Positions 413-64,000 of a stretch of DNA of 64,000 nt are shown one piece after another. Positions within the stretch are counted from its first letter, which is position 1; the number at the start of each line of letters is the position of its first letter. The stretch spans positions 434,001 through 498,000 of the forward strand of contig QPGO01000017.1 of NCBI GenBank assembly GCA_008632985.1, in the 5' to 3' direction. The notes under the pieces are model-generated. The model was not told the DNA's origin and searched no databases. It was given only the letters and a program-made list of their open reading frames with translations. Source of the stretch: Psammoneis japonica. Lineage: Eukaryota. A program made the position numbers and the translations under genes.

Positions 413-3400
413 TCAAATGCCGAATGCACCAGAAGGAACCCTTTCGTTCTTGCTAATCGTTGCTGCCTTTGCCTTCGAAATGCCATCGCAGAACTGGTCT
501 TCCGTGATTTGGCCAGTGGAGCATTCACGGGTCATTTGGTTTTTGAGAATCATTGAGCGGAGCGGCACGCAGAGACCCTTGAGCACCACAAAGTCAGACT
601 CTGGGGTGACATCTTCCATCAAGATTTGAAAACCCTGCTCTGTGGCAGCGCGACAAATCTGAAACAGGCACTTCAAGTCGTCACTGTCACCCACCTTGAA
701 TCCGTCCAAAGCCAAGCTTTTGAAGTGAGCGTGCTGCATCCCTTGCATGCATGAGAAATTTTAGATTGGGGCATGAACCAATGAAATGAACCGAAATGCG
801 ATGTCCACTGCCCGTGTCCTCCTTGCTGGGATCGCCAGTGCCATTCCGGATAAATGCAGGGTCGTTGGTGAAGCACTCACCTTCATCCGAGCATGCGCAC
901 TCTTCAAAAATGAGGGTGCACCTCGAGCCCATCAACGGGCTGAAAATTGCATCTTCAATTATGAGCGTCTTCGCGAAGATAAGGTCAGGAAAATCGTGGG
1001 ACTCAGCGCATCGTTTCCCACAGGTGCGCATTGCCTCTGGCGTGACAGCAGGAAGAGGCTTGTTCTTCTTCGTTGTGACAGTTAGCTCGGATGCTCCGGA
1101 GACGTGTGCGAGGCCCACCAATGCAGTGGACAGCATGTCTTTCATAGCATCAGTTCCTTCAATGCTGACGACTTGGAGAATGTGGCTTTGCCTGTTCCAA
1201 ATGTGATGTGGATGTCTTGCGACTGGGTCAATCCCAGGCCGGGGCCCCACACAGTTCCATGTCTTCTCCGGTGACGTAATCATCGGAACCGATTGACTCG
1301 TCATCACATGACTCTGTGTCACTGGAATCATTCTTTCTGTTGAATGGATTGTCGATGAAGAAGGCTGCCGGCTTGTAATCGCTTGCGAGGATGATCTTGG
1401 TGCTGATTCCGACGAGATCTTGACCGTCCGTTGGTGCGTTCAAGCTAGCTTCGATGAGGGAGGGAACTTGTTCGGCAATGTTGCACACAACGATTGCTCC
1501 GGGGCATTCAGAATCCATGTCGTGAGCATACTTCCAATCGTCGTCGCTGACACCGTTGATGCGCATCTGATGGAGTTCCTTGAGAAGGAGGGCATCCGAC
1601 ATCGGATATCTAGAAATGGGAGAAAAACAAAGAGCTTCAGTGAGTAAGATGCATGAGGCAACACAGAATCTTTAAAATGCTAAAAAACTTACTGTTCGAT
1701 ACGTCTCGAGCCTGCTCCTCCAGAGGCAGAAGGGGTTGTAGCCGCCGGCTTGTTATCGTAACTGCTTCCATTGTCTCTGTCGTGGACGGCATCCGACGTC
1801 GGATATCTGGATATGGTAGCAACACAAAGAGCTTCAGCGAGTAAGACGCATGATGCAACACAAAATCTTTAAAATAATAGACAACTTACTGTTCGATACA
1901 TCTCGAATCTGCTCCTCCAGAGGCAGAAGGAGTTGTAGCCGCCGGCTTGTTGCTTCCATTGTCTCTGTCGTAGAGGGCATCCGATGTCGGATATCTAGAA
2001 ATAGTAGAAAAACAAAGAGCTTCAGTGAGTAAGACGCATGAGGCAACGAAGAATCTGTAAAATGCTAGACAACTTACCATTCGATACGTGTCGAATCTGC
2101 TCCTCCAAGGCATAAGGAGTTGTAGCCGCCGGCTTGTTGCTTCCATTGTCTCCGTCGTGGACGGCATCCGACGTCGGATATCTAGAAATGGTAGAAAAAC
2201 AAAGAGCTTCAGTGAGTAAGACGCATGATGGAACACAGAAATTTTACAGTACTAAAAAGCTTACTGTTCCATACGTCTCAAACCTGCTCCTCCAGATGCA
2301 GAAGGGGTTGTAGCCGCCGGCTTGTTATCGTGACTGCTTCCATTGTCTCCGTCGTGGACGGCATCAGACGTCGGATATCTAGAAATGATAGCGAAACAAA
2401 GAGCTTCAGTGAGTAAGACGCATGAGGCAACACAGAATCGTTAAAATAATAGACAACTTACTGTTCGATACGTCTCGAATCTGCTCCTCCAGAGGCAGAA
2501 GGAGTTGTAGCTGCCGGCTTGTTGCTTCCATTGTCTCCGTCGCAGAGGGCATCCGACGTCGGATATCTAGAAATAGTACAAAAACAAAGAGCTTCAGTCA
2601 GTAAGACGCATGAGGTAATGCAGAATCTGGAAAATACAAGACAACTTACTCCTCCGTAAGATTGTCGCCATCGTAGTGGGCATCTGGCGTCGGATGTCTA
2701 GAAATAGCAAAAAACAAAGGAAATTCGCTGAAAGAAAACAGAATTTGTAGCATGTATATTATGTCAAGAAGACTCACTGTTCAATGCCGCTGTTTTGCAT
2801 CTCCCCCGCTCGATCGTAAGTGCGCTCGTCGCCAAAGTCGGGGAATAAGGTGCGGCTACCGGTAGGGGGCGATTCCGCATCATCTCTATATAAATAATCC
2901 AACAGAAAGACAAAGACATTATCAGTGCAACACTCTCGAGGTAAAAAGGAATTAGTGAAGAGCGAGAAGAATGTGCAGAATGCAAGACCACTTACGGTTC
3001 GGTTATACCGCTTTGTTGCAAGAGGTGAGTAACGATTTTACGACTCATGCTGCCTGCTTCCGTAAGGCTCCCCGCCACGGTCCTACTCACGGTCTCCCTC
3101 ACAGTCTCCTCATACTGGTTCTGCCTGGCAATCGCTCTGTCATACAGCGCCAATCGAAACTGCTGGTTTCTACTGAGCGATTGTGGGTAACCGCCCGCCG
3201 GAGTTTGCACTCCGACAGTCGACGGGAGAGGCGTTGCTTCGCGGCGGTTGAGAGATTGCGGCGTTCTGTTTTCCAACGGAGGTCTCGCGTGCGGAGTCGT
3301 CGTCGTGTGCGCCGATCTCGGATGACTCGTCGAAGCACGGCGAGGCGTTTGGTGTTGTTGGTTCATTGCTGCGGCTTCGGCTTCCTTTTTGGCTAGTCGG

Positions 3401-9412: not shown

Positions 9413-12178
9413 ATGTCATTCACCATGGTATCAGGTGATTCAATACACATTCGCGTATTGGTAGCAAGCACGGGGGTTTGCTACAACATCTCACTGCATC
9501 CGACGGAGCTCACGTAAGTCGGAGTCTTTGTTAGCGTTCTCAGCGGGTTATTCCGGGTTTCTTCATTCGTGTCGACCCCGTCAGTGCACGTTTGGGTGAT
9601 CTTTCATCGATTGGACGAAAGATATCTGTGTATAGGGTGGGCCCAGAGGAATGCTTTGTTGTATGAAGGAGTCCGGTGTGAAACTTGAGAATTCCTTCGA
9701 TGAATTCTTACCGAATTTTGATGGTACCTCTCACGGTATGTTTGATGTATTTTCTTCCTCTGCAGGGTTGCGAATATCCGCCGTCATTTGGCCGCGGCAG
9801 TTCCGCCAGGAGACCAGATTCTGCTTCTCGGTCCACCATATAAAGTACCTAAGGACTCGACATTGCAATCTGAAGAAGTGTTGACTTCGCTTCGTCTGGG
9901 TGATCAGGAGGACAACCCGGTTCTGGAGGAAGGGGATGGCAGCACACAGAAGAATATTCTCTCCGCAACAGAACGGACTGGCGCACGGCGTCTCTTTTTG
10001 TTTTCAAAACAAGCTCTTTCAGAATCAGCTCCGGATCCGCCGCCGTGTCAGCTAGAACCTATGACTTTGCAATTACCTACCGAGCCAGGACCAAGTCCGC
10101 TTACACTGCGCGGGGAACAGGGCGGTTCACCCTCACAATCCACTCCCCCGGTTTTGTCGCCTTTGCACCAAGCTTTAGAAGTGTACGAACGGCGATTCAT
10201 GTTAAACTTATGCCGTGGACGAGCGCTTGCGGACGGAGCGGACATGCGCCTGAATGCGTGTCGAACTTGCGTTTCGGAACAGGCTGTCATGGCGCGAGCC
10301 CTTAGAGCGGCCGTATCGAACCTATCAGATCATTTCAATGGCGCCGCTCGTACACGTACTGAATTCACAACATCCTTTCAAGTCAAAACTGCATCTCATG
10401 CCGCCCTTTTGCAGAAGTTTGAATCTATTCTTCAATCTCTGGCTGGCATTCCTCTTCATCCTGCACTTGTGTCGGTCGCTCGAGCCTCGGGTCGAGTAAT
10501 GGAGACACTGTTGGACACGGTCCCCGTGGAACGCGAGAGAACATGGGCAAATCAATGTAACACATCCCATCAGCGATTGATGACTCTGTTTAGTGAACTG
10601 GATACAGCGTTTAGCCAATTGGGAACAACAGCATCTCGAGAAGAGGAGGCGCGGCTGGATTTGCAAGCTGAAGATGAAATAAAGAAGTTGTGGACGGAGG
10701 TGGATGGAACGGCAAAGACAATTCGTGATAAGCAAGCGGAACGCTTGGAGAAACTGACGGCGGATCACGGGGAGGTAGTGAAGGTCGTGATGAATGCGAT
10801 ATCAGAGGAAGGGGGCAACGCGCAAGATGCATTTACGACGCTTGAGGAAATGTCCAAAGCGTCTGTCAATATTATACCGTCGATGGAGGCTGATGATTTA
10901 ATACTTATGCAATTAATGCAAAAGGTTTCAGACGCCAAAACGCAGGCAATGAAACGCATGAAGAATCGACTCCGAGAAGTTAGCGTATCGCAGTCCGCCA
11001 TTCAACGCGTATTATCGAGTTTGGCCGTCGTGCGAGAAGCCCTCTCACAGCAAAGCGAGAATATGATCCATTTGGAGCACGTTGCGGAGCTTTCTGGCTC
11101 TTATAACGATTTTTTATCTGAACTTCGACGGAGAAGAGCCTACGGTGCTGCAGTTACTTCGTCTTCGGCGGCAATGATGGAGCGGCTAGCTTCGATGAGA
11201 AACGACGAAGTCAAGGCCCGGGAGAAGTTTCTTCGTGGGTCGGGACGTCATTTGATGCCTCCCTTCTTTGAAATTTTTGCTCCCACTTTGGCGACACCTC
11301 CTCCTTTGTTTACGCCGCAATTACCTGCAATGGTTGAGCTGGATACATTGCCGGATGTCGGCCCTGTTAGCGGGGCTACAACGACGGGACCATCTGCGGA
11401 CGCTGCGATGCAGGGTACGGATGCAGCCGGTGGCATAAGCACAGCTTCTTCTCTTACTACTGAAAGCCAGCCCCCACAAGCAATCGAGCCCGTGTCCATG
11501 ATGTCAACAACTGCCGCGAGCAGCACAACTCGCATGGAAGGCACTACTGCGACTGAGAAGCAACCGCAGGAGCAGCTGATTGTGAGTGCAGATGAACACA
11601 GCGCCACGGACGATCTTATCATGGGGCCTTCTGCTCAAGAGGATGCGGCAGCGGACGCCGAACGCAAGACTTTGGCATACGAGAACGCGGTTCTTCGTCA
11701 GGCTTTGGAGCGCATGGGCGGAAAGTCTCCTAGAACTTATATTGATGAGGCACGTGAAAATGATCCTAAAATTCAAGTCGAGCATGCTGCTGCATTAGAG
11801 TTGGCGGCACTGCGTAAGGAGCTGGAAACAACTAAGTCTGAGGCTCGCGCAGCCAAAGATTCCTTACTTGCGGCGAAGAAGAAGAGCGACAAGATCAGCC
11901 ACTCAAGTTTTGAAGTCGGAGATGTTGGTTTGTTCATGCCGACAGGACGTGGCTCTGGTGGCAAACGTACGTATTTAGCATTTCACACAAATTGTCCTCA
12001 TCGGTATCTGTCCACGGATAGTATCAAGGGCACTCCTGATTACGTTGTAGGCAGAATTGTGTACCAAGAGGAACTCATTGCCGGAGAGAGTGGAACCGAC
12101 GCGAACCCTTATGGACTTCATGTTGGAACGAAGTTCTGGGTACTGACCGTTGAACAGTTGGTCGTAAACAACCCATAA
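9413..12178 (+). CDS. ATG11: Autophagy-related protein 11 (RB1CC1/FIP200-like)
   Basis: Exon 1 at 9413-9513, GTAAGT...TGCAG intron, exon 2 at 9766-12178 in frame. Long helical scaffold (ELRRRRAY) and C-terminal Atg11 domain (ISHSSFEVGDVGLFMP, YLAFHTNCPHRYLS, YVVGRIVY). Confidence 0.85.
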
Positions 12179-12487
12179 ATTTAGCTTAACACTTCTCTTT
12201 CTAAATCATTCTAGGCTGTCGTAAAGATCCAGTTTCCTTTGAAGCTTGGATCTATGATAAAGCAGATGGCAAACGGCGGGAACGTCGACGAAAAATAGGA
12301 CTTTATTTTCATCAAATCTAATGAGTTTATGTCTCGTTTTTGATTATCAGCCGGAACGAAACGCAGTCCGAACAATTTCTCTGATAATGAGCAAAAATAT
12401 CACCCAGACAAAATGCGCCGCACTTCGTTAATGTCGTTGCCAGCAACAACGTTCGTAATCTCCCCAACCAGCGCTGGCTTAATATCA

Positions 12488-12918
12488 CTATGCTTTTGTT
12501 TTCGCAGCAGGGGCATTCTCCTTTCTCGCTGCATCTTGTAAAAGCTCTGTGTCAACGTGCTCTGGTGGAATCTGAATATACCGTACAACACTCCCACGTA
12601 CGAAGCAGTTCTGAAGTGCACAAAGCTGTGGGTATTTCTCAGGATTCACTACGTTTACATTCAACAATTTTACGTTCAGGTACTGGTCAACGCTATGAAG
12701 AGTACCCGTTAAAACAACATCGTTCTTAAGTTCAACCGCAATCTCCTTTCCAACCAAGGTCTTGAAAAAAGAATAGAAAATCTGTTTGAAAACGCGAAAG
12801 AATGACACTGTAAGGGCTGGAAGTCACCACGCAGCAACAACTTTCGTTCCGAGACAGATGTTCAGATTCCAAGCATCCGCTTATTGCAATGTTAAAAGGC
12901 CCGTACAGGTCTTACCAT
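12488..12918 (-). CDS. LSM2: U6 snRNA-associated Sm-like protein LSm2
   Basis: FYSFFKTLVGKEIAVELKND...GTLHSVDQYLNVKL...NCFVRGSVVRYI. First coding exon is ATG only (12918-12916), followed by a GTAAG...CAG intron (12915-12782). Confidence 0.95.
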
Positions 12919-15589
12919 TAGATGCGTATCAATTCTCAGAGGCCCTCGTTACTCTTCGTGGTTATCAAGCTGCAGCGTTGTCCTCTCGTCTAACGTCTAA
13001 CGTCGGAAGTACTAATGCGTCCAGCGTCGATTAGTTTTGAGGTGTGAGGTGTGAGCGGCATCAAAATGATTTTTCGCGCGATAAGGCTCTCTACTGGACG
13101 CGAGAAGACGACCTCCTCCGCCAAAGCAAGAAACGCGATGGATTGTGACATTTCGTCTTACAGACCTCCCAGTTGGGAGTGTTCGTCTCCCAAGAAATCA
13201 GCTGATCGAGACGAGGTCAATTCCCCTCCCCCTGGAAACGCAAACAAACAAGGAACGACCCCCCTGCCACATGTTCTTTGAGTCCACGTCTGAGGCAGCT
13301 GCTCGCAAGTCGACAGAGTCAAGTCAAGTGACAAAACAAGGCAGCTCTGGTGTCCGGGAGCAACAACGACTTTGGCACCCCAGAGAACCTGCCTGTCAAA
13401 GCAAAGGACAACCAGGCAACTCTGTCTGATTAAGGAGGACCAGCTGTGCAACCTGCCTTCTTTCCTTTCAAAGATTCTTCTCCATTGTGACATGTTCTTG
13501 AGCCTGGCACCTGGTGACAAAAAGGAGGGTGCGCACACAGGCCCATGCCGCCCCCCATGCTGGCAGAGAACAAGTGCACACATGAGCAAAAAACTCGCTG
13601 TCAACAAGCTCACCAAGGATGCCCTGGTCGATGAAAATCTCCAGGACAATGAACAGACACAATGAAGAAGAAGAAGAAACAAGCCAGTGTGTTGGCGCGT
13701 CCACTCAAGTTAAGAACAGGGCACCAGCAGCCAAAGGCAAGGAAGCTCGAAAGGAAAAAAGAGAAAGGGTGGCTCCTTCTCAAGTTGTCCTTCTCATCTT
13801 CCTCTGCATTCAACGGATCAGCACAGCGCAGTTCTTCCAGCATCTCCATGGGCACACTGCTGTTCTTGGGTGGCAAACTCCAGCACCAGCACCTCAAACA
13901 AAGCAGCACCAAGTTGGCATCCTCATCAGAACAAGAAGGCAGCTGAAAAAAATCTTGTTGGTGGGGATGCCACATGACACCCACAAAATTGTGGGAGCAG
14001 CCAAGTCTCTTGTCATGTGCAACCCCCCCCCCCCCCCCCTTTGTTCACAACTTGCTTGAGTGAGTTTTTGTCCCGCCCTTTCTCTGTGGCAAGAACAATC
14101 CCTCCTCTGCTCTCTTGCAAAAATGTGCCTGACAATGCCACACCTGCGAAAACAATGAAGCAGAAAAAAGGGAGGGTGTCTTGGCCAAACAACCAGGTGG
14201 TGAGTCAGATGGCAAATCAGACAACAATGAGTTGGGAGACAACAGAGAGAGGTGGTGTGAGCTGCACAACAGCAACACACTTGCAACAATGTGGCAGCTG
14301 CACCACAACCAAAGAGCAGCTGCAGCCACATTTCCCCAGGAGGATTGTGACAACAACAACAACTTGACAAAAAGCCTGTGTTCTTGTTGAGGGCCCACTC
14401 ATTGCAAACAAATTGATTTGACAATTAGCCAATCAGCAAAGGAGGAGCCAGACTTGAGGAAATTTGGTCTCAAAGCAGGCAGGTTCTCAACAAGACAAAT
14501 TGTGAATGTTGGCAGTGGTCAACCAAGTCAATGAAACAAGAAACCACAACAACAAACAAAACATTGCTCATTTCTGTGCAATGTTTGCTCTTTCCATGCT
14601 GGCAATGTTTGACATTTGGTGCATGCTCTTGTGCTCTCATTCTGTGCTGTTGCTTTGTTGCTTGCCTTTGTTCCCTTTGTTCTTCAAGCTGCTGTCCCAT
14701 CTTGCAGCCTGTCTTGCATCTCTCAGCATTCTTGGCTGTGCTGGCATTGCATCACACTCCAAACTTTTTGTGTTTCAAATGCAGTCAGTTTTTGCAACAG
14801 CTGGTCATGGTGAGACGTGAAAGCAAAATCTCTGAGAGGAGACAGCAGAGAAGATGTCAGCTTGGCATGTTTTCTTTGGCAAGTGTGGCACAATGCTGCT
14901 GTTTCTACTTGCCGGTGTGCAATGTTGCAGCAGTTTGTTTCTCATCCTTGGCCATTTTTGTCAACTTGTCTGAGCTTCAAGAAACAAAAAATGCAAAAGA
15001 AGGAAAGCATTGTTTTGTTTTTGTTTGCCAAAAGCTGCCTGCTCCCTTGTCACACTTTTGACCACCTGCCTTTCCTGAAGCATTTGTTTGTTGGTTTGTG
15101 CAGAGTTCTGCATGTTGTTGGTGCCTTCCTGCGATGTTGTCATTGTTTGCATGCTGCATTCATGCATCCTGCATTTTTGTGATTTTTTGTGTGGTGGCGA
15201 TGTGCCTTTTTGCCCCAGCCAACAAGCCAGTCAGCCTGGTGATCATTGCCTGTGTGTCATTTTGTAAGTTGTCATTGCAAAAGCTTTTTGTTGCACTCAT
15301 TTGTGAAGTTTCAAATCAGTTGAATTGACTTGAATGAGTCATTTCTTCATTGGCTTTCATTGCCAATGCACTTTGCTTGTGTGTGCACCCCCTCTCCACT
15401 CATTTGGCATCTGGGCATTGAACAGCACCAGTGCTTCAAACAGATGCATCACATCTGTTTTCAAAGAAGATTTGTGTCTCAGTTTTTGTGACCTCAACTG
15501 GCTCTTGTCAAGAATGAAATTTTCACATTTGTGCAGGCCCACTCAGCTTGTTTGCTTGTCTCCGTGTGGGGTGTGCCATTGCAGCAGCT

Positions 15590-17470
15590 GATCTTTGTGG
15601 CTGATCCAGACATGCGCAATGGCACCAACCACCATTCCAACCATTGCAATCTGAGGACACTGCAGCATCTGGCAAACCACAGGCAATGCTTTGAGGGCTG
15701 TTGATTTGGGAGCTGCAAGGTCAGTCTTCTGACGTTGCAGCCATGTTGCTGTGTCTCCAACAGCAGCAGACTTGAACTTCCAAACCCCACAGTGAAAGGA
15801 CCACATGATGGCACCAACCAACCTGGCAAAACTGCAAGCTGAGGGCACTGGAGGTGTCTGGTCAACCCCAGGCAACACTTCAAGAACTGTGGCTGAGCAT
15901 TGGAATGTTGACCTTGTGGTGTTGTGGCCTCACATGTCACCTTGGCCCGCCACTTTGGAAAATTGAACTTCCAAACTCCAGAGTGTGCAAGGAGATCCCA
16001 TGGTGGCACCAACCAGCCTGACAACTGCAAGCTGAGGGCGTTGGAAGTCTCTGGGAGGCCCCAGATGACACTCTGTCAACTGTTGCTGGATGTTGCAAGG
16101 TTGATGTTGCAGTGTCATGGCCCCATGTTGCCTTGTCCCCAATGGCAGCAGACTTGAGCTTCCAAACTCCAGAGTGAACAAGGGGCCCCATGATGGCACC
16201 AACTGACCTCTTGATGGCTGCAAGCTGAGGGCACTGGCAGCATCTGGCAGACCCCAGATGTTTTTCTAAGAACTGTGGTTGGGCATTGCAAGGTCAATCT
16301 TGTGGCAATGTGGCCCCATGTTGCCTTGTCTCCAAGCAACTGCAGCAGCAGGGGGGCAGACTTGCAACTTTTCCAGCTCTAGAGTGCTGCAAGGATCCAA
16401 CCATGTCAATGCCAGCTGACCTGACAGCTGCAGGCTGAGGACACTGACCATGTCCAGTGGAACCCAGGCAACACTCCTGGAACAGTTGTTGAGTGTTGCA
16501 AGGTTGTTGATCCATCTTGTGGTGTTGTGGCCCCATTTCATGTCCCCAACACCAGCAGGGGAGACTTGAGCTTCCAAACTTCAGAGCAAAGCAACTCCAT
16601 GATGGCACCAAAACCAACCTGATGGCAGCAAGCTGAGGACACTGGTGGTGTCTCTGGTGGACCCCAGGCAACACTTTGAGAACTGTGGTTGAGAGTTGCA
16701 AGGTTGACATTGTGATGTTGTGGCCCCATGTCACCTTGTCCCCAACAGCAGCTGACTTGACTTTCCCAGCTGCAAGAGAGTGCAGGGATCCCACAACAGC
16801 ACCAACCAACCCAGCCATTGCCAGCAAAGCACAATGGCTTGTGGCCTCTGGTGCTGGACTCAGGGCAAGATTTCAAGAATGGTTGTTGGGCACTGTGCAA
16901 GGTTGATCCTGCGGTGTTGTGGCTCCACAATGTCACTTGTGCCCAACAGCAGCAGACTTGAACTTCCAAAATCCAGAGTGAAAGGACCCCATGACACCAC
17001 CAGCCAACCTGACAACAGCAAGCTGAGGGCCCTGGCAGTGTCTGGCACACCCCAGGGTGCACTTTGAGAGCTGTGGCTGAGTGTTGCAAGGCTTGTCTTG
17101 TGATGTTGTCACCCCGTGTCACCTTTTGTTCCCCACAGCAGTGGACTTGAGGACTTTCCCAACTCCAAAGTGCAAGGATCTCACAATGGCGCCAACCAAC
17201 TTGACCACAGCCATTGGCAGAGTGCATTTTCAGTCTTTGACAGACCCCAGGTGAACTGTGGTTGGGCACTGCAAGGTTGATCTTGAAGTGTTGTGGCCCC
17301 ATGACATCACATTGTGCCCAACAGCTGTGGACTTGAACCTCCAGTCAAACTCCAGAGTGAATGACTGTGGCCCCATGTCACCTTTTTTTTCAACAGCAGC
17401 AGACCCAATTTTCTAAACTCCAGAGTTGGTTTGGTTGTTGCCAAATGGTGGTGGGTGAAGAGCAAAACTT
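15590..17470. repeat. Diverged tandem repeat, about 195 bp unit, about 10 copies
   Basis: GCAGCAGACTTGARCTTCCAAACTCCAGAGTG, CTGCAAGCTGAGGGCACTGG and GCAAGGTTGATCTTG recur with a period of about 190-200 bp. Confidence 0.9.
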
Positions 17471-18569
17471 CAAGGGGCCATGTGCTGGGAATGCCAGAAG
17501 CACAGAGTTGCCAAACAGCGACAAAATGGCTTGAGGAGGAAAATGGATGATTTTGCAGCAGCATTTTTGAAACAAGTTTCTCTTTGTTGGGGAACCAATG
17601 AAGAGCTGCAACAAACACTCAAGCTGTCCTCTGTTTCATTCAGATCAAAAGTTCAGGCAAGAATGGATCTTGTGGGAGGATCAGCTGGGGTGCAAGAAGT
17701 CAGAAATGTGAGGTCAAGCTTGTTTGTTGATTGCATGCCACACAACTTTTGGAGGCTTGCAGCCTTGTCAAGCTTTCTTTCCAGGCGAGTTGTCAAGAGT
17801 GAGTTTTTGTGGCCAATCTTGTTGACAACACAGTTTTTGCAATGTTGCACCAATCATCTGCTTTGACCTGTTGCACAAAGCTTCAACATGTCAAACAAAG
17901 GCTTCTTTCACCAAAGCCTTGGCTGCAAATGTTGCTCATGCAGTCTGGGTCCTGGAGCTGTGTGCACAGAGAATGCCTGCCCTTCTCTCTGACACGCAAA
18001 TTGGCACTTGGACAAGCATGGCACCCAAACAACCCTCTGCAATCTTTTGCAACAAGAGACAAAACTGGTGCACTTGCAAACCAACAAGGAAGAGCCACAC
18101 AGGCAGTGGGCATGATTTGGTGTTTGCTGGCAGAGAAACCCACTGACACAGCTGAAACAGCCAGAGTGCAATGTGCAAGCATGGAAATAAAATCACAGCC
18201 ATGTCAATCCAGACAACTTGGCACCCAAAAAAGCATTTGCAGCACATTTGTTTTCAATTGACCACTTCAAAGTGGTTTTGAATGAAGCACAGAATTTGAT
18301 TGATGCACTCTGAGATCTCTCTGGGTTGATGTTTGGTTTTGCAAAAACTTGTGATGTGATGACAAGGATGTCAAGTTGGTTGATGAGCACATTTGTGGCA
18401 ACAGAGGAAGCATGAATGATGACAAGGGTGGGGTGACATCATGGCCATTGTGGGGGTGGCTTGACATTGTGAGCTGGGCTCTGCTGGAGTGCAAATTGAC
18501 ACTGGACAGAAGAAAAGGATTCAAGTTTGCAGCTGCACTGTTCATTTGTTAAAAGGGGGCTGGCTCAAT

Positions 18570-19580
18570 GAGAAGTTTGACACTTGAGCCTCCAAACTCC
18601 AGAGTGAAAGGACCCCATGGTGGCATCATGTGGCACCAACCAACCTGACAACTGCAACAAGCTGAGGGCACTGGTGGCATTGGTGGGCCCTCAGCATGTG
18701 ACTTCAAGATCTGCAGCTGAGCATTGCAAAGTTGATCTTGTGTGGTGCAGTGGCCCCATGTCATGTTGTCCCCAACAGCAGCAGACTTGAGCTTCCCAGC
18801 TCCAGATTGCAAGGAACCCATGGTGGGGCCAGCCAACCCAACAAATGCCAGCAGAGGACACTGGTGGTCTTGTCTTTGGTGGACCCCAGGCAACACTTTA
18901 AGAACCATGGTTGGACATTGCAAGGTTGATCTTGTGGCATTGTGGCTCCATGGTGTCACTTTTTCCCCAGCAGCAGCAGACTTGAGTTTCCCAACTCCAA
19001 AATGAAGGGACCACACTGCAGCACCAACCAACCCAAAGACTGGCAGCACCAGTGGTGGACTCAGGCAACACTGCTGTGAGAGCCATGGTTGGGCATTGCA
19101 AGGTTGATCTTGAAGTGTTGTGGCCCAACATCATGTTGTGTCCGCACTGCAGCCTGAGGCCCCCAGCATGACAGTGCCAGCCAACCTGACAACAGCAAGC
19201 TGAGGAGACAGCTGGTGGCATCTGGTGTGCCCCAGGCAACACCCAAAGAACTGTTGTGTGGCCCCATGTCACCTTGTTGCCACAGCAGGCAGTGACTTGC
19301 CATTTCCAACTCCAGAGCACACAAGAATCTCCCATGGTGGCACCAACCAACCTGACAACCACTGGCAGAAGTTGGCAGTCTTTGGTGGACCCCAGGCAAG
19401 ACTTTGAGAGCTGTTGTTGAGCACTGCAGGTTGATCTTCAAGCATTGTGGCCCTGTGTCACATTGTGCCCAACAGCAGCAGGAGCGGACTTGAGCTTCCA
19501 AACTCCTGAGTGAAATGATCCCATGGCAATGCCAACCAACCTTGCAACAGCAAACATGGCGCCATCAACTGCCCCAATTT
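18570..19580. repeat. Second array of the same ~195 bp repeat, about 5 copies, same orientation
   Basis: Same motifs at about 18585, 18780, 18970, 19290 and 19485. Confidence 0.85.
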
Positions 19581-22424
19581 TCAAAGTTGCTTTGTTGCAG
19601 TCACAAGTGCCACGCACTCCTGTCAATGCTGTGGGCTGGTGGCAAATGCATGTTTCATGTGTCCCCAGCTGTGACCCACATGCATCCTGTGCAGCTCATG
19701 ATGTCATGTGTGATGATGCAGCGGCAGTCCATGTGTTTTTGTGCAAGGCAGCATCTGAAATTAACTTGATCATTGCACATCTTGAAGTCACAGTTGCAGC
19801 ATTGCCAGCTCTGTGAACAGCATCTGTGGTGAATCCAGAGTGGGTGGGTGGAAAGACCAGCTTGTTGAGGTGCAAGCATGAGACAGGAGTGCATCTGAGG
19901 AGCCTGGGCACCTGTGACGCCTTCATCATAAGTTGTCACCTTGGGTTGGCTGTGCCAAGAGCCACAAGTTGACTCACCCAGGTGCTCAACAATGCATTTC
20001 CCTGGTGGCTGTGCCACTAAAATCTGTGTCTTCTTGGCTTTGTTGTGGGTGTTTGCTTGATTCAACTGTGTGTGTCAGAATCACAAACTGGTCGTTGCTG
20101 TTGCTGCAGGGGCATTTGGGGCCCCAACTGCACCTGCAAGAACTGTGTTGGCTGCAACTGTGATTGCAACTTTGTTCATCTCTTTTCAAACATTTCATTG
20201 TGTGCGATGATTCCTGGTGCACATTTTCATGCTTGTTGTTGCACTTGCACTCATGATGATTTTTGCACGATCATTGTGGTCATTGTGTCATGGGTGGCAT
20301 TGCTGCGCTGTTTTTGAGCCTCTTTGATGACACACTTTGACATTTTACAGTCAACCACATTGCAGGTGTGTCCAATGTGTGGCTCCTTTTCATTGTGCCA
20401 CTCACACAAACATTTTTGGCAGTGTTTGCCTGGAGAGTCTTCTCAGTTGGTTCTTGCCAAGCAATGTTGCATCTGAGCTGGTCCTGAAGCAGCTCTGGCT
20501 GCCTGGGCCTTTCACTCAGGCTGTTAAGAAAAACAGTGTCCTCATGACATCTTGGTCTCCAGCTTGCAACTGGCTGCACTGCTTGTTTTTGACCACACAA
20601 GGCAAAGCATGTCCACACTGCTTGTCCTTGATGAGCTTGGGATGGTTGTTGAGAGCTTGACCTGAGAGCATCTTGGATCATTTTCAAGAAAATGACTTTT
20701 TGCTTGGCAAGTCAACCCTGGCTCTGGGCGGTCCTTGTCATGTGGGGGTTGCTCTTGTTTTCTGCAGGAATCTCTTTGTTTGCATTGTCAAAGTGCCAGA
20801 TGGCATCACCACACATTGAACTGTGCACCGCCACATTGAAATCTGCCAACCCTGTCTCACAGGTCTTGTTTCCAGTGTGACATGTGATTTGTCTCTTCCT
20901 GGAAACAGCGCCACTCTTTGGGTTTGTTGTTTTCTGTTCTGGCAAAGCACTTGACTTCAGCATGTTCTGTGATGCCTGGATGTTCATGTTCAGGGTCATC
21001 TGGGAGTGCATGAGTGACAAAGTCTGCTTTTCTCAATTGTTTTGTCTTTTTCTTTGAGAGAGTTGAAGTTGGAGAACAACATGAAACACAACTTGGCAGT
21101 GCACTTCCAAGCAACAATTTGCTGATGACCACTGCTGTCAGCATGAATGAGATCAAAATGCCAGAAGTGATGTCACTGTGTGCTGCACAGGCACTGTTTC
21201 TGATTCCATCAGATGTTGCCATTGCTTTGCAAAAGGCAAAATTGCAAGGAGCACTGTCACACACTCATTTGTTGTGATGCTTGGAGTTTGGCTGAGTCAA
21301 AAGATTTTGAGCAAGACTTCAAAGATGTCTTGGATCTTCATCAGCCATTTCTTGCATGGCACGGGCAAGCACAATTGCATTGTCTGTCAAAAGGCGGTTG
21401 GCTCAGTGAGAAATTCATTTTGAAAGAAGAGTCTTTTTGTTGCTGTCAGTCATGTGATGAGAGGAAACACACAGTGGATTGTGACAGGGACAGGGGTGCA
21501 CCATTTTGTCATGCAAACAATGGGCCAGTGGCTGAGTTGTGTGGTGCCCCATGCAACAAAGAGACAACAAGTGCAGCAGAAACACACAAATGCGCACAAT
21601 GGGCAATGATCAAACCAAAGCTCTTCCAAGCAAATGAATCAACTTTGAACAAGATGCCATGCCACAAACAAAACATTGCAAATCAATCACCATCAGCAAA
21701 CCAGCTGTCAACCTCAAATGACAAATCCGGCAATTCCAGATTTTGGTTTGTGGCCAAAAACAAGCCAGCGTCAGAACATTGTTCAGAATCACAGCTGCGG
21801 TGACCACCTTGGTTGATTTTTGAAAAAATGAGACACCTGTCATGGCAAATGCAAACACAGGCAAAATTTTTTTGACTCTTCTGAACAAATCACTTCTTGC
21901 TGCAAACAACAATTTGCAATCTTGCTGTCAACTCTCTGTGCACCCAAATGTTTGATGTGAAACACAAAATGACTGAGCAGTGTGTGCCAGTGAGAGCTGT
22001 TGGACAACAAAAAGACTGGTGGCCAGAAGCTGGCAGTGCTGTTTGCTGGTGTTTTGTTTGTCAGCAAAGAAGCCTGCCCAGAGAGCATCAGTGTCAGGAG
22101 GCACTTGTTGGACCCACCCATGAAAATCAAGTGCTGCAGCAGCATGCTGTTGAGTTGGAGGTCATGCTGCGCACAATTCATTGACAGAGCATCACCAGAA
22201 AAGGAGCTGCAGTTTGCAAAGGGGCTCAACTGACAAAGAAACTGTGCTCAACAATGTGGAACAAGAGCCAGAAAGAGCTCATTTTGACTGCCACTGCCAG
22301 GTTGATTGGGGGTTGGGGGCACAATGGCAAGCATGACTCATGTGTCAAGACGAGTGGGCTGTGTTGCTGTTGTTGTTGACCAAGGACTCTTCCTTGCTTC
22401 CCTTTTCTTGTCTTGAACAAAAAA

Positions 22425-23160
22425 CACCGGCAATGAGAGAAGCAAAACATCATGAACCCACCCACCATTGGACAACCCATTGAATGACATGTGAGACACA
22501 GCAAGAGAAAAAGATCATGTCTGCCTGCTGTCAACAAGGTGTGTGCACTGTGCCTTGAAGAACCAGGCAGAAAGTGATGCAACAAACAAAACACTGAAAG
22601 CAAAAATCATGAGACCATTTTGGGTTTTGGTTGGATGTGGGCAATTGCAAATGACACTCTCTGCAGCACAAGGCAAAATGACTGAGAGATGAGAGCTGTG
22701 CCAAGTGGGCACTCTTCAAAAGGCTCAAAGTCCATTTGATGCTCACATGTTGGTGTGCCACGACAGACACTTGGGTTCAAAAATGGCTGTGGCACCGGCA
22801 ATGAGAGAAGCAAAACATCATGAACCCACCCACCATTGGACAACCCATTGAATGACATGTGAGACACAGCAAGAGAAAAAGATCATGTCTGCCTGCTGTC
22901 AACAAGGTGTGTGCACTGTGCCTTGAAGAACCAGGCAGAAAGTGATGCAACAAACAAAACACTGAAAGCAAAAATCATGAGACCATTTTGGGTTTTGGTT
23001 GGATGTGGGCAATTGCAAATGACACTCTCTGCAGCACAAGGCAAAATGACTGAGAGATGAGAGCTGTGCCAAGTGGGCACTCTTCAAAAGGCTCAAAGTC
23101 CATTTGATGCTCACATGTTGGTGTGCCACGACAGACACTTGGGTTCAAAAATGGCTGTGG
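22425..23160. repeat. Apparently exact 368-bp direct tandem duplication
   Basis: 22425-22792 is repeated at 22793-23160. Identical ORF translations occur at offset 368. Confidence 0.95.
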
Positions 23161-25050
23161 CTGCTCTGCAAGGAAGCAAAGAGTTGTTGTTGGCCATCTG
23201 CATGGGAGTTGACCAGAGACAAAATCAAGCTCACAGAATCTGCAAAGAGAAGTGGCAGTGCAACAAGAAAAAATTCCTTGCCAACTCTCTGCCAGCAGCA
23301 CTGTGTGTGGTGACTGCAGCAAATTCTGCCAAAACAAGTGTGCCAGCTCACTCTGATGCTGTCATCTTCACATGGATCACAGGAAGGTTGCAGGAAAAGA
23401 AGAGAAAAGTGCGGCAACATTGCCATCCTCATGTGGTGCTGCCACCATGGCAAGCTCCAATGTGTTGCACACTGCATGTGCTGAGGCTCCATGAGGAGCA
23501 TCATCTTGTGGGTGGCAGAGAAACATGGGTGCCACCTCCACATGCTGACTGAAGGCAAGCCTCAAAAACTTGGCAACAGCACAAGCAAGGACAAGACCTC
23601 TTTCTTGTCAATTCTTGAGAGAGCTCTTTTGGGACAGATGAAGGGTGCTTTCATGCCAAGGGGGCAAGACCAAGGGAGGAGATCCTGGAGGCTGCCAAAA
23701 GCAAAGAGAAGCCACTCTGCTGGCTGAGTGCAGCACAGGAAAGGTGAGAAATGCATGGGCCAACCAAGGTTGGGCTGGCCCTGGGTTGAAGAGATGATGC
23801 AAGAACTTGGCTGTGCCATGACCGGAGCATAAAAAATGAGAGATAAAAATGGGCAAAAGATTTCTGCAAAGTTGCCACACAGAAGCACCTTTTGCAGTGG
23901 GTGAGCTGAAAAAGAGAAAAGAAGGCAAAGGAGACCAGATTGGTGGGAGAGCATGGTGGTGGCAAAGAAGCAACCAGCTGAGCAGAGGAGGTTCAGACAA
24001 GCAGTTGTTTGTGTCATTTGTGAGGCAACGGCCAGGAGTTGAGCAGCTGCTGTGTCATGAAATGTTTTTTGCTGTGACCTGTGACTCATCAACACATTTG
24101 CTCCAAGCAGAGCCTGCAGCACAGCTGAAAAGACAACAAAAAAAATGTGGAGTGCACATTTGGGGTTTGCCACAAAAAGCTTTTGGGTTGATGCCAATTG
24201 GCCAAATTGGGCGGGTGACAGAATCCTGACTTTTTTAAATCAGAAAATCCATTGGATGATTTGGAAAACCCATTTTTTTTCATTGATTTTCCAAAGTGTG
24301 TGACAACAGTGGTTTTGTGGTGCCAATTTTCCCCCTCCTCAGGGCTCAGCCTTGTGCAATCTTAGAGTGGGAGCACCTCACTGGCACAGCCCCGAGCCAA
24401 AAGGAGTGCACACACGGTGGCTCAGCATGCTCAAGAAGTGGGCCAAGCTCCAACCCAAGATCAAAAAGTTTGAAATCTCAGATTGTGACATTGGGCCAAG
24501 ACCATTGATGCTGATCATCTTTGCCATGAGAGCGAGGCAGAAGAAGCGGGAGAGAAAGTCTCTCTCTCTCACAATGAGCGGATTTTGTTCCCCAGCTCTG
24601 CTCTTTCCTCAGCACTGGCAGCAGCATGGAGAGCCAACACAGTTTCCCTTTTTAACTTCTCACAACAACAAAGGGTCCTTCTGAGCCCGAACATTCTCCA
24701 AAAAGGCTGGGAGAAAGCCAGTCCAGCACCAGTGTTGCAAGTTGCACAACCTGGAGTGCGTGCCCAGGCAGCGCTTGGCTCAAGCGAACTTGGGTTCGCT
24801 GTCTGGAACACATTTCTCTCTGGAGTTCTGCACCCCATCTAAATGAAATTCTGCTAAGGGCACCAGCACTAAGCGGCAATTTTTTTGTTGATTGGTCGTG
24901 TTTCAACTGCTTGTGCCAGTGCAGCTGACGGCAGACCGGCTGACGAAGCAAAAGAATGTGACAAATGACTAAAAACGTGATTAAATACCAAAAAATCGAC
25001 CTCTCCAGTACAGAATGGACGTGGAAATCGTCTACAAATCACACAGAGTT

Positions 25051-25135
25051 AGCCGCTGGTCGTGGGTTCGACCCCCATCTTGAGCACTCCTTGCGGACGC
25101 TCTTGTAACTCAGTGGTCAGAGTGGCGGTCTTATG
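25051..25135 (+). tRNA. Circularly permuted tRNA-Ile(UAU): 3' half 25051-25086, 12-nt spacer, 5' half 25099-25135
   Basis: Joining GCTCTTGTAACTCAGTGGTCAGAGTGGCGGTCTTATG with AGCCGCTGGTCGTGGGTTCGACCCCCATCTTGAGCA gives a 73-nt cloverleaf. D stem ACTC/GAGT, anticodon stem GCGGT/GCCGC with loop CTTATGA, T stem GTGGG/CCCAT with loop TTCGACC. Acceptor GCTCTTG/CTTGAGC has two U-U pairs. Confidence 0.9.
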
Positions 25136-25828
25136 AGTGTGTTTCTTTTACAATTTCTTCTGTACAACGTCTCTTTTCGGTGGACTTGTAGGTGCCGTAA
25201 CGATGGTTTGACCACAACGCTTGACTCCAGTTAGATCGAAAAGTCATGGGGGTCAAGACCAGAACTTTGGCCTTCTCTTTTTGATCCTTGTCTGTGCACT
25301 GTTCCCAATTCATTTCTTGTCTGATGGAGATGTTTTGATTCAGCACAGAGTAAATGCTATCTAATACAAAGTAGAGAAGCTGTCATGTGCAACACGCCGG
25401 GGACAGAGTTTCCCCCTTTTGTTCGTCATAGCTTCCGACGTTCAACCAATGAAACGACTCGGACCAAACGTACGTACGCATGCTACGTACAAGTAGCAGC
25501 CTACTGAGTCACTGTACTGTACAATCACGCGCAAATTCTGCAATCGCTCACATTTTCATCCTGAATCAATCCGAAGAACACTGAAGGAAAGAACGGAACA
25601 GATTCTTGCATCTATTGCTTCTCCTCCATGAGAAAGTGCTCAACTAAGACCTGTGAATCGAGACGATTTTCGCCCTCTCGACACACCAAAGATAGTAGCT
25701 CGCTTCGCCGGATTATCATCGAAGTTTCTCTTTTCGATTGTATTTTCGCCCGGAAAACCCGGAGGTTGAAGTCACGATCTCGTCACAGCGACCGCTGTGC
25801 TGAACTTTTACCTTTTTTGATCGCTTTC

Positions 25829-28309
25829 ATGGACGAAGATTTGATGGCACAAGCGCTGTTTGCTAATCGAGAACTCATAGAAGAGCCTATCGAACGTTCA
25901 GGAATTACATCGAAGCGTCGTCGACCTACGTCTTATAATAATCACATGAGATACCGACAATTTTTTCCGTACACAAGAATCATGGTGATGATGTTGCTGT
26001 TGCAAAGATTCGCGAACTCAATCGTCGCGTATAGTCCAATGAAGCAGTCCCTGACACGAAGCGGATCATTTCTCTCGAGAAGATTTTCAGCATGTAATAT
26101 GAAAATGGCCGCTGATTCACGGGAATTACGGTTCTACTCCGGATCAGCGGCGATTCTGGAACAACACGAACCCCTCTTTGCGAGTGTCGTTGCATCAGAG
26201 GAGATAAGAGACAATCCTAAAGAAAAGCTCAAGTCAGCAAATGGTAGCCCAATACTGCCATTTCTCTCGGCTTCGGGACCCGCTTCTGGTGATGATACTG
26301 GTTCCCTGAACGGAAGACATTCTTCTGACAAGAATAGTAACGTTGAAGTCGGTCCGGCACTCGATCTGTCTAAGGAAGAAGAACGTCTCTTCATTCTGCT
26401 TTCGCAAGTAACTGAAGAGACTGATATTTCGTCAACTTTAAGAGTTGCAGGTGGCTGGGTTCGTGACAAGCTCTTGGCCACGAAAGAATACCAGCATTAC
26501 CACAAAACTGCCAAGGCTGAACGATTAACATCCAAGTCTAAGGCTAAGCCGACAGCCCCGGACGCCCAACAGCCATCAATGGGACGACAGGGGACTAAGG
26601 TCATAACGGACGTCTCCATGCATCCTGTGGATATTGACATTGCGCTTGATGATATGTTGGGACGTGAATTCGCCGACCACTTGAACGAGTTCCTCTCTGA
26701 ACATGGTCGCGAGACGGTGTCGGTTGGCGTGGTTCTGAAGAACCCAGAAAAATCCAAACACTTGGAAACAGCTACAATGAAAGTGGGTAGTTTCTGGATC
26801 GACTTTGTTAATTTGCGGGCCGAAGAATACACTCAAGACAGCCGAATACCTGATCTTATGCGAATTGGAACTCCCGCTGAAGATGCATTTCGACGTGATT
26901 TGACCATCAATGCACTCTTCTACAACATAAACACCCGGCAAGTGGAAGATTGGACAGGACGGGGACTGGAAGACTTGCGTCGTGGTGTTGTGGCGACACC
27001 GTTGGCTCCGCTTACGACCCTTCTAGACGATCCGCTTCGTGTATTGCGGTCGATTCGGTTTGCCGCTAGACTACGATTTGGTATGGATGAAGACTTAGTT
27101 GCCGCAGCGAAAGATGAACGGGTGAGAGATGCGCTCGCCCAAAAAGTGTCGCGGGAACGCGTTGGAGGAGAGGTTGATCTCATGCTTCGGTCGCCAGATC
27201 CTGTGGGTGCAATGAGACTTTTGATCAATCTCGACCTTGTTGACACGGTGTTTCCTGTTGAGTGCTATGTTGCCGACGAACGAGATCGCGAAAACATCTA
27301 CAACGACGGGTTGATCTTATTGACCACGACGCACGACCACGTTTGTGATTGCAAAGCGAATCCTCCCGTTTGGTGTGAGGCCAAGCGGGCCATGAGTACT
27401 GCGGCATTTGGCGTCAATGAACAAATACTCATGGACGATGAGAATGCACGACGATTGCTTTGGTACGCCTCTTTTCTTAAACCTCTCATGGACTATTCGA
27501 ATCGAAAGATTCCAAGTATCACGGCACGACGACGACAAGGACGAAAAGCTAATCGGTCTGTTGTGAGCAAAGTCTTGGTTGACGAATTGAAACGACCCAT
27601 GCGAGATGCCGAGGCTGCAGAGAAGATCATGAAGGCCGCCGATGACTTTACGAGACTCATCAACAGCGGATGTGATTTGTCTGCAATGGCAATACTTGTC
27701 AGTGACGTCAAGATTCAGCACCCGAAAGGGAACACAGAACTGGATGGTTTCGGTGTGACTTGCCTGATGGACTCGCAGCCGGTGGACAGCGAAACAGAGG
27801 ATCACCCGGTTTGGACGCACGCAATGGAGTTCCGATTACTGTGCAGTAAAGTCTTGCAACGGGTAGGGTCGTACTGGAGAGCAGCGTTAATACTCTCACT
27901 ATCGGAACAACTTGTAAACTTGCATATGGAACTGGACTACGCCATCGAAGGTGACGTGGTAAGTAAATTGAAATGTTTGATTATTTTGTTATTGAAGCAA
28001 AGACAACTTATGCTCCTTTCTTCTTGGTTGCCACAGGTGGACGAGAGCCAGGAAGAAAGACGGCAAGGTATTATTCAGAACTACGACGCTTTCGCTGCGG
28101 CGTTGCAACAAATGGGTCTGATTGGCATTTGGAGCCAGAAGCCGTTATTGGACGGAGGGGCGATGAAGAAGGTTCTCCCGCAGATCCCCAAGGGACCGGG
28201 TTTTCGAGAAGTAATGGAAGAGCAGGAGAATTGGATGACAACGCATCCAGGTGGCAGTAAAGAAGCACTTGCGAGACACGTTCAGGATACTTTTCCCGAG
28301 TATGTATAG
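25829..28309 (+). CDS. CCA1: CCA-adding tRNA nucleotidyltransferase (class II) with long N-terminal extension
   Basis: LRVAGGWVRDKLL, DIDIALD, DFVNLRAEEYTQDSRIP, EDAFRRDLTINALFYN and DDPLRVLRSIRFA. In-frame intron at about 27959-28036. True start uncertain (25628, 25829 or 25982). Confidence 0.9.
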   Translation: MDEDLMAQALFANRELIEEPIERSGITSKRRRPTSYNNHMRYRQFFPYTRIMVMMLLLQRFANSIVAYSPMKQSLTRSGSFLSRRFSACNMKMAADSRELRFYSGSAAILEQHEPLFASVVASEEIRDNPKEKLKSANGSPILPFLSASGPASGDDTGSLNGRHSSDKNSNVEVGPALDLSKEEERLFILLSQVTEETDISSTLRVAGGWVRDKLLATKEYQHYHKTAKAERLTSKSKAKPTAPDAQQPSMGRQGTKVITDVSMHPVDIDIALDDMLGREFADHLNEFLSEHGRETVSVGVVLKNPEKSKHLETATMKVGSFWIDFVNLRAEEYTQDSRIPDLMRIGTPAEDAFRRDLTINALFYNINTRQVEDWTGRGLEDLRRGVVATPLAPLTTLLDDPLRVLRSIRFAARLRFGMDEDLVAAAKDERVRDALAQKVSRERVGGEVDLMLRSPDPVGAMRLLINLDLVDTVFPVECYVADERDRENIYNDGLILLTTTHDHVCDCKANPPVWCEAKRAMSTAAFGVNEQILMDDENARRLLWYASFLKPLMDYSNRKIPSITARRRQGRKANRSVVSKVLVDELKRPMRDAEAAEKIMKAADDFTRLINSGCDLSAMAILVSDVKIQHPKGNTELDGFGVTCLMDSQPVDSETEDHPVWTHAMEFRLLCSKVLQRVGSYWRAALILSLSEQLVNLHMELDYAIEGDVVSKLKCLIILLLKQRQLMLLSSWLPQVDESQEERRQGIIQNYDAFAAALQQMGLIGIWSQKPLLDGGAMKKVLPQIPKGPGFREVMEEQENWMTTHPGGSKEALARHVQDTFPEYV

Positions 28310-57798: not shown

Positions 57799-58117
57799 TG
57801 TTTATCTGTCTTGTATATCTCCTTCTCACTTTCGAGACGCTTCTCCGAGAGAGAGAGAAATGGGCAGAGTATGTAGTTGTTATCGTTGTGTCACATCGCG
57901 AAGCGTGAAGATCTTGGGCTACGTAGAAATACGTAGAAACAATACGATATCTTTTCCTCACGAAAAGCACGAGCACGAGCGCACCTCGCACCTGCACGCA
58001 TGCATCATCGCACTGTTATCGTCATTGCATCGATCGATCATTGAGGGAATCAATCTCATCTCGCATTAACACTTCCCTTTCTTTCCTCATTGTCCTTTAT
58101 CAACAAGCTACAGAGCC

Positions 58118-63564: not shown

Positions 63565-63774
63565 TAGAAAATACTCTCTAATGTTACGTGTACTTCTCTA
63601 TTGACTGCAGCACGATGGCAGAGATGACGGAAAGTCAATCAAGAGTGCCATTGTGGGGAGTTCCAACTGAGAGTGGGAGGGACAAGTCGTCTTTACGGGC
63701 GGCGGACATACAAAGATCTACCGGTACACGTGCGTCTGTCCATCCGTCCATCCTTGTACCGGTGCTGTAAGAGG

Positions 63775-64000
63775 AGCTCAAAGCTCTCAAAACCATCCTC
63801 GCTCGCGTTCACAGCAAAAAAGATGGCGGTCCGCATCACTGGGCGGGCATGCAACCATGGACAGCAGACAGCAGCAGGGAGATGAACTGAACAACAGCAC
63901 AGGACATCCATGAATGCCAAAAGCAAAAGGCAGGGACACTCACAAAATGGGACGGGGATGCACGAATGCGAGCGCGGGGTTCTTTCCTCCTGCCCCCCCC
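63775..64000. other. Probable start of another TpA-free block
   Basis: No TA seen in the last ~225 nt, CpG retained; ends in a C run. Confidence 0.5.

Follow-up and report, generated by a model that had tools for sequence, protein, structure and literature searches.

In the genome of the diatom Psammoneis japonica, a stretch of 64,000 nt (assembly GCA_008632985.1, contig QPGO01000017.1, 434,001–498,000, forward strand; here called the window, to which all positions below refer) contains five domains from which the dinucleotide TpA (TA) is almost gone and in which TG and CA are in excess. We suggest, with a probability of roughly 0.7, that these domains record an ongoing, domain-limited hypermutation of TpA to TpG or CpA, together with ordinary CpG decay, in silent non-coding or repeat DNA, akin to a process reported in the chlorarachniophyte alga Bigelowiella natans (Mettrop et al., bioRxiv 10.64898/2026.01.13.699255). 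The domains would then be gene-free, mostly degenerate DNA lying between ordinary diatom genes (a 193-bp satellite, an element bracketed by repeats resembling long terminal repeats (LTRs), and unidentifiable sequence), and would have been rewritten in place by two domain-confined mutational processes. One would be a TpA-specific A:T to G:C hypermutation acting on either strand, still active and working best at T-A-Y (Y, pyrimidine); the other would be a slower decay of CpG to TpG or CpA, restricted to a core within the TA-free domain. The steps that can be read from the DNA are its composition, the fate of the lost TA and CG as TG or CA, the resolution of these sites in place, the nesting of the two losses, the symmetry of the strands, and the context of the surviving TAs.

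Dinucleotide contents are given as observed/expected ratios (o/e), with the expectation taken from base composition, and the reference is the 41 kb of normal DNA in the window (TA 0.61, CG 1.05, CA 1.09, TG 1.12). The core of the largest domain (13500–24500) has 19 TA where 730 are expected (o/e 0.03) and 57 CG where 645 are expected (o/e 0.09), with CA at 1.85 and TG at 1.91. AA and TT are enriched in the same core (1.27 and 1.28), and neither AA nor AT shows conversion. With the TA level of the window itself, the expectation for this interval is about 445 TA, and the Poisson probability of finding 19 or fewer is 1e-160. Each 500-nt bin between 13501 and 24500 holds 0–2 TA and 0–9 CG, against 9–47 TA and 12–49 CG in normal bins, and the longest run free of TA extends over 3,305 nt (20525–23830). 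An initial annotation of this DNA, made from the letters alone, had counted about 20 TA in a block of 11.5 kb, with few CG and a large excess of TG and CA; the program count of 24 TA and 74 CG in 13300–24950 (11,651 nt) bears this out. It had also placed a like state at about 1–1.5, 47.8–54.3, 59.3–60.95 and 63.8–64 kb, of which the TA loss stands, while the CG loss is only partial (CG o/e 0.78, 0.53 and 0.20 in the first three). Defined by their TA-free runs, the five domains total 21,132 nt, or 33% of the window. They and their parts, none of which is assigned to a strand, are as follows, with the evidence in brackets.

1–1480: B0, TA-poor domain truncated by the window edge (TA o/e 0.14, CG 0.78)
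13160–24840: B1, main TA-free domain, 22 TA in 11.7 kb (TA positions, TA-free gaps, composition)
13828–24392: CG-depleted core of B1 (CG positions, CG-free gaps)
13160–13827: left shoulder of B1, TA-free with CG kept, 19 CG and 2 TA (position lists)
24393–24840: right shoulder of B1, where CG is back before TA (position lists)
47686–~54000: B2, TA-free domain with patchy CG loss, TA 0.09, CG 0.53 (composition, TA-free gaps)
59381–60863: B3, TA-free domain, TA 0.07, CG 0.20 (composition, TA-free gaps)
63769–64000: B4, onset of a TA-free domain truncated by the window edge, CG present, no TA (TA-free gaps)

The coding capacity of B1 reflects the same loss. In its six-frame translation tyrosine makes up 0.03% of residues, against 2.3% in normal DNA, and cysteine, histidine, tryptophan and glutamine are raised; the stops number 16 TAA, 3 TAG and 314 TGA. 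Because TAA and TAG are nearly gone, the blocks contain long false open reading frames (ORFs).

The fate of the missing dinucleotides was assessed by a simulation in which every TA and/or CG of the window's normal DNA was randomly converted to TG or CA and the product compared with the block. Conversion of both predicts CA 1.90 and TG 1.95, against the observed 1.85 and 1.91, and raises the correlation of 4-mers with the block from 0.52 (unmutated) to 0.91. The root-mean-square deviations (RMSDs) from the block over the 16 dinucleotide ratios were as follows.

TA and CG both converted: RMSD 0.12
CG only converted: RMSD 0.20
TA only converted: RMSD 0.30
unmutated normal DNA: RMSD 0.42

Conversion of CG only brings TG and CA to just 1.60–1.63; CpG decay alone underpredicts them, and therefore the lost TAs also became TG or CA. 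In 1–1500, where TA stands at 0.14 and CG at 0.78, TG and CA each reach 1.43, and conversion of TA only predicts 1.41–1.46. The loss of TA is separable from that of CG, because this segment and 49001–49500 inside B2 (TA 0.06, CG 1.12) keep CG without TA.

Further information on the course of the change comes from repeated sequences within the blocks, all listed on the forward strand.

15618–17426, + strand: array of degenerate 193-bp satellite units, 65–77% alike and multi-copy in the genome (self-comparison, profile, depth)
18575–19556, + strand: second array of the 193-bp satellite (profile, raised contig depth)
22425–23161, + strand: exact 368-bp tandem duplication in B1, both copies TA-free (self-comparison)
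47914–48292, + strand: left arm of an LTR-like direct repeat of B2, 67% alike to 53151–53485 (self-comparison)
53151–53485, + strand: right arm of the same repeat (self-comparison)

Units of the satellite differ in having TG or CA at shared columns, and two units retain TA, which argues for conversion in place after duplication. When 12 units are aligned without redundancy, 14 of the 38 columns dominated by pyrimidine-purine (YR) steps are mixtures of TG and CA, compared with 1 of 69 columns in the six other double-transition classes (Fisher p 9e-7). One column has 5 TG, 3 CA and 2 TA, and another 4 TG, 4 CA and 1 CG; since the rare state lies one step from both common states, a TA and a CG ancestor, respectively, are indicated. 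Among redundant high-scoring pairs, exchanges between CA and TG account for 287 of the 944 adjacent double differences, the next class for 52, and in the LTR-like pair of B2 they account for 9 of 21. The 368-bp duplication appears younger than most of the conversion, because both of its copies share the same two CG sites. One related genomic copy, on a contig of a DNA sequencing run, has CA to TG at 15495–15496 and TG to CA at 15499–15500, like the flips between units within the window.

The domains had been described as sharply bounded, and indeed the composition switches within about 100–300 nt at their borders. Within B1 the two losses are nested, the CG-poor core (13828–24392) lying inside the TA-free domain (13160–24840); on the right side CG reappears at 24393–24533 and TA only at 24840. 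CG likewise returns before TA on the left side of B2, on both sides of B3 and in B4, and on the right side of B2 the two return together. Relative to normal DNA, the log loss of TA is about five times that of CG in B0, about three times in B2, and roughly the same in B3 and B1, with both perhaps near their floor.

The two strands have been struck alike. Along B1, TG is as common as CA (chi-square p 0.10), the choice between them is independent at neighbouring sites (z between -0.5 and 0.6), and a run test on the block TG and CA sites gave no strand runs of the kind left by processive editing. Equal numbers and independent neighbours together point to single-site events on either strand. The initial annotation's proposal of a TpA to TpG or CpA change on both strands, apart from CpG decay, agrees with the simulation, the TA-only zones, the TG/CA mixtures of the repeats and the symmetry of TG and CA. 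Background C:G to T:A transitions turn TG and CA back into TA. In 13500–24500 there are 19 TA to 2,578 TG plus CA, so that at steady state TA would be removed at a rate at least about 136 times that of the back-transition, and from this steady-state argument the process would be active still, or have been so until very recently. The TAs that survive in the blocks are distributed over flanking contexts (R, purine) as follows.

YTAR: 35 of 71 surviving block TAs; 278 sites in normal DNA; 1,127 block TG/CA precursor sites
mixed (TAR on one strand, TAY on the other): 36 of 71 surviving block TAs; 912 sites in normal DNA; 2,445 precursor sites
RTAY: 0 of 71 surviving block TAs; 530 sites in normal DNA; 1,053 precursor sites

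The distribution differs from that in normal DNA (chi-square p 9e-15) and from that of the block precursor sites (p 5e-8), and for RTAY, with no survivor against 1,053 precursors, the removal ratio is higher still. We favour a T-A-Y preference of the process over a faster re-creation of TAR, because B2, which still has half its CG, shows a like pattern of survivors.

Several observations weigh against the interpretation given here. The excess of surviving TAR could be due to biased re-creation of TA instead of to an enzyme's preference. The TG/CA mixture test cannot separate TA from CG ancestry; what it establishes is the instability of YR steps, which can end as either TG or CA, and by itself it is no proof of TA ancestry. 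Exchange of CA and TG also leads the adjacent double differences (13 of 50) in a family of normal tandem repeats at 1587–2719, where polarisation by majority gives 8 forward and 2 backward changes for CpG decay and 3 versus 3, hence no bias, for TA, these being small numbers. A less-mutated source copy was found nowhere outside the blocks within the window by blastn self-comparison, by exact purine/pyrimidine 30-mers, by blastn of 48.8–50.2 kb against the satellite or by nhmmer profiles of both repeat families; because no such intact copy was found, the direction of change is deduced and not polarised by alignment. Homology does not identify what the blocks were, and, with much of B1 about single copy, a targeting of repeats as such is only a possibility. 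The DNA run that bridges the junctions (see below) may be the assembly data of the window itself and hence is not independent confirmation. Beyond this genome, 414 kb of diatom-like metagenome sequence at 80 loci around relatives of the window's MCM3 gene had no TA-free block save in high-GC loci, a comparison of low power made mostly on short genic contigs. Finally, mutation accumulation in Phaeodactylum showed a GC to AT bias, the mutable contexts being CG, CC and TG, and the accessible text of that report gives no TpA effect (PMC6604790).

The reality of the blocks is supported by one DNA run that contains 94% of the sampled words from 12500–22400. Two of its contigs, built with a different assembler, match across the borders of B1: one of 8,731 nt covers 11000–14039 with 0 differences, and one of 25,779 nt covers 23132–27000 with 1 difference, so that both gene-to-block junctions are bridged. 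The initial annotation had asked for long reads over the junctions; these contigs, though perhaps from the assembly's own data, cross both edges at single-copy depth. Contig depth is 59–62 in the flanks and 62–86 in most unique parts of B1, and much of B1 is about single copy by this measure. Summed depth rises to as much as 1126 at 14.7–17.4 kb and 18.5–19.5 kb, and 308 of the 540 contigs placed on this high-depth part are only 90–95% alike to the window, by which it is recognised as a multi-copy family. The target had been proposed to be silenced or repeated DNA; repetition is seen in the satellite part of B1, and much of the domain is about single copy. An assembler artefact is excluded by these data and a platform artefact is not.

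As to what the blocks contain, a profile of the 193-bp satellite gives 17 matches in B1. Its unit length is near that of a nucleosome repeat, and no minus-strand frame has a TGA across several units, giving false ORFs of up to 268 amino acids. The direct repeats of B2 flank about 5.2 kb and resemble the LTRs of a dead element; no remnant of a reverse transcriptase or integrase was found by Pfam between the arms or in the block ORFs. More generally, 115 block ORFs (20 + 95) gave 0 credible Pfam matches, viral and transposon domains included, and only sub-threshold chance matches. The ORF at 690–1439 (minus strand) had 0 HMMER matches among 1.84 billion representatives, the ORF at 49062–49769 had none in viral contigs or in the Atlas, and Rfam gave 0 matches over the whole window. 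The normal tandem repeats at 1587–2719 mentioned above adjoin the TA-poor B0; they have a period of about 197 nt and a higher-order period of 572, are alike to 84–92%, show no departure from normal in TA or CG content, and have no relation to the 193-bp satellite.

The blocks are situated between the 5' ends of genes. Those between them carry ordinary Pfam domains (ATG11, poly(A) polymerase, MCM3, Polo kinase, an ABC protein and RPC5) and have ordinary composition (TA o/e around 0.6), as had been stated, and the MCM3 ORF has its best identity, 75–76%, to diatom transcriptome proteins. No member of a deaminase family was found by Pfam among the window's 21 long ORFs. The gene next to the left border of B1 is the following.

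12373–13029, - strand: flanking spliced gene, 5' end about 130 nt outside the left border of B1 (spliced record in a sequencing run; intron 12782–12915, GT..AG on the minus strand)

The run with this spliced record behaves like RNA or cDNA, though labelled 'DNA?'; no run listed as RNA contains the stretch. It leaves 13136–25417 uncovered save for two 18-nt scraps, which we do not count as evidence of silence.

Other explanations of the blocks were considered. The same outcome could be reached through thymine, if, in silent chromatin, a TET/JBP-like oxygenase modified the T of TpA to 5-hydroxymethyluracil or to something like base J, and this T then became C by mispairing or through faulty repair. 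Given the symmetry of the strands, events on the A strand and on the T strand are indistinguishable by composition, and the base J of kinetoplastids and the 5-hydroxymethyluracil of dinoflagellates favour T in TpA. We nonetheless regard this chemistry as unlikely: the window has no TET/JBP gene, its sole 2-oxoglutarate oxygenase (56332–57801) being of the prolyl-hydroxylase type (PF13640), and in the B. natans preprint adenine deamination is the favoured chemistry, with ADAT2 as the named candidate (10.64898/2026.01.13.699255). A single system directed at YpR steps, in which a dual A and C deaminase removes TpA and CpG and 5-methylcytosine (5mC) plays no role, would account for the fact that both losses end as TG or CA and coincide in B1 and B3, and the same preprint cites ADAT2 enzymes able to deaminate A as well as C in DNA. 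It seems quite improbable, since the losses separate in 1–1500, in 49001–49500 and in the CG-rich shoulders, all TA-poor with CG kept, and since 230 of the 231 hypermutations in B. natans were A:T to G:C at TpA, with CpG not struck (10.64898/2026.01.13.699255).

That the blocks are foreign or mobile DNA which already lacked TA and CG on arrival, through another host or through selection, would suit content without recognisable relatives. Against such an intrinsic composition stand the differences between satellite units described above, the differing limits of the TA-free and CG-poor regions, and the occurrence of five separate domains with a common TA loss and differing CG states. In our judgement a TA o/e of 0.03 in non-coding DNA is also far beyond any avoidance known to us, and we consider this explanation very improbable. 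Still less can be said for RNA hyper-editing followed by retrocopying, in which ADAR-like A-to-I editing of double-stranded retroelement transcripts would be fixed by reverse transcription. The LTR-like repeats of B2 and the liking of ADAR for U before the edited A (cited in 10.64898/2026.01.13.699255) are in its favour. AA is not depleted (o/e 1.27), neighbouring TG and CA sites show no strand runs, the block ORFs hold no reverse transcriptase or integrase remnant, and shoulders adjoining promoters as well as a satellite array are affected, all of which speaks against it. To our knowledge ADARs are, in addition, known only from animals. An artefact, whether of base-calling or assembly at modified bases or of contaminant DNA, is equally remote: the sequencing platform is unknown and the sole DNA run with the stretch may be the assembly's own, but contigs from a different assembler bridge both junctions at flank-like depth, diatom genes are physically contiguous with the blocks, and miscalls at a symmetric modification would presumably also leave TA and CG calls, which are absent here.

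Returning to TpA hypermutation as the preferred explanation, a tentative view of its chemistry is that an ADAT/TadA-like enzyme, recruited to silent chromatin, deaminates adenine; a TadA-like deaminase was among the candidates of the initial annotation. In the natural tRNA substrate of ADAT/TadA, U33 precedes A34. For now we would rank adenine deamination first and thymine oxidation second. The CpG loss is presumably due to 5mC, and the purpose of TpA hypermutation may be defence against repeats or foreign DNA. A wider proposal, possible though we would not call it probable, is that diatoms carry a DNA editing system targeted to chromatin domains and independent of cytosine methylation, most likely a T-A-Y adenine deamination, which removes all TpA from DNA that is silent and non-genic and has reached saturation across a large part of the genome. 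Shared with chlorarachniophytes, it would be an old genome defence of the SAR group (stramenopiles, alveolates and Rhizaria) or wider, opposite in direction to that of fungi.

In full-text literature searches, with subscription journals outside their coverage, no report of TpA hypermutation in diatoms was found, and the B. natans preprint was the only one of TpA-specific hypermutation elsewhere. The process, of which the initial annotation knew no description, is thus so far known from one 2026 preprint on one alga. A saturated footprint in a distant and ecologically dominant lineage would mean that it is no quirk of a single species, and destruction of unwanted DNA in this manner may be widespread. 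As points for testing, the diatom case adds a preference for T-A-Y, the separateness of TA loss from CpG loss, and domain ends that lie within about 100–300 nt of gene 5' ends. In practice, TA-free blocks yield long false ORFs and defeat homology-based annotation of repeats; their purine/pyrimidine pattern, which transitions keep intact, could be used to reveal their former identity.

Among known systems, the mutagenesis of WA motifs (W, A or T) by Pol eta in phase 2 of somatic hypermutation likewise turns A into G at an A after T. WA includes AA, and AA stands at 1.27 here against 0.03 for TA, which makes it unlikely and disfavours the Pol eta-type repair that had been offered as a candidate; we know of no error-prone polymerase that near-completely removes a single dinucleotide. 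ADAR and APOBEC of animals resemble the present process in making deamination-type transitions on unwanted nucleic acid, and ADAR prefers a U 5' of the edited A (cited in 10.64898/2026.01.13.699255). Their events differ in forming strand-coordinated clusters, on RNA in the case of ADAR, whereas the sites here are independent, both strands are equal and AA is spared. The blocks resemble the product of repeat-induced point mutation (RIP) of ascomycete fungi in the density of transitions, in their confinement within sharp limits to DNA that is non-genic or repeated, in bearing a dinucleotide signature and in the ruin of coding capacity; RIP, however, turns CpA into TpA and so enriches TpA, while here TpA is nearly gone and CpA is 1.85-fold. 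RIP further depends on duplication and on a sexual stage, and a like dependence here would have to allow for much of B1 being about single copy. The decay of methylated CpG in vertebrates, plants and diatom transposons likewise gives TpG and CpA, and is matched by the fall of CpG o/e to 0.09 in block cores and 0.20 in B3 and by the need for a CG term to reach the observed TG and CA. In Phaeodactylum about 6% of the genome is methylated (PMC6604790). CpG decay cannot remove TpA, which is lost here also where CG is intact.

The nearest likeness is to B. natans. In its mutation-accumulation lines, 231 of 302 nuclear mutations fell in two integrated viral regions (nucleocytoplasmic large DNA virus (NCLDV) and virophage), and 230 of these 231 were A to G or T to C, all at TpA; only some of the lines showed the process at work (Mettrop et al., bioRxiv 10.64898/2026.01.13.699255). 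The genome has 124 clusters in which TpA is scarce and CpA and TpG abound, their genes being mostly unannotated, and the authors, favouring adenine deamination, propose an ADAT2 homologue. Of the 64 1-kb bins of the present window, 18 pass the thresholds of the preprint, 11 of them consecutive. As far as that account goes, both systems strike TpA only and give TpG or CpA according to strand (here read from the long-term signature alone), both are confined to discrete regions, here five domains, with normal neighbouring genes, and both leave TpA-poor, CpA- and TpG-rich clusters of mostly unannotatable sequence. The two differ in host, here a diatom and thus a stramenopile, there a chlorarachniophyte, and perhaps in target, which here includes satellite and an LTR-like repeat pair and has no viral or transposon domain among 115 ORFs. 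A CpG-loss core is nested in the TpA-poor domain here and a T-A-Y preference is seen, while the main text of the preprint mentions neither CpG nor diatoms and gives no flanking context. The present blocks are near saturation, with TA o/e 0.03 against 0.45 in the NCLDV region of B. natans. There, de novo mutations give a rate of about 6e-7 per site per generation within the regions and 3.5e-10 elsewhere, about 1000 times background as the preprint has it, and here the steady state sets a lower bound, about 136 times the rate of back-transition.

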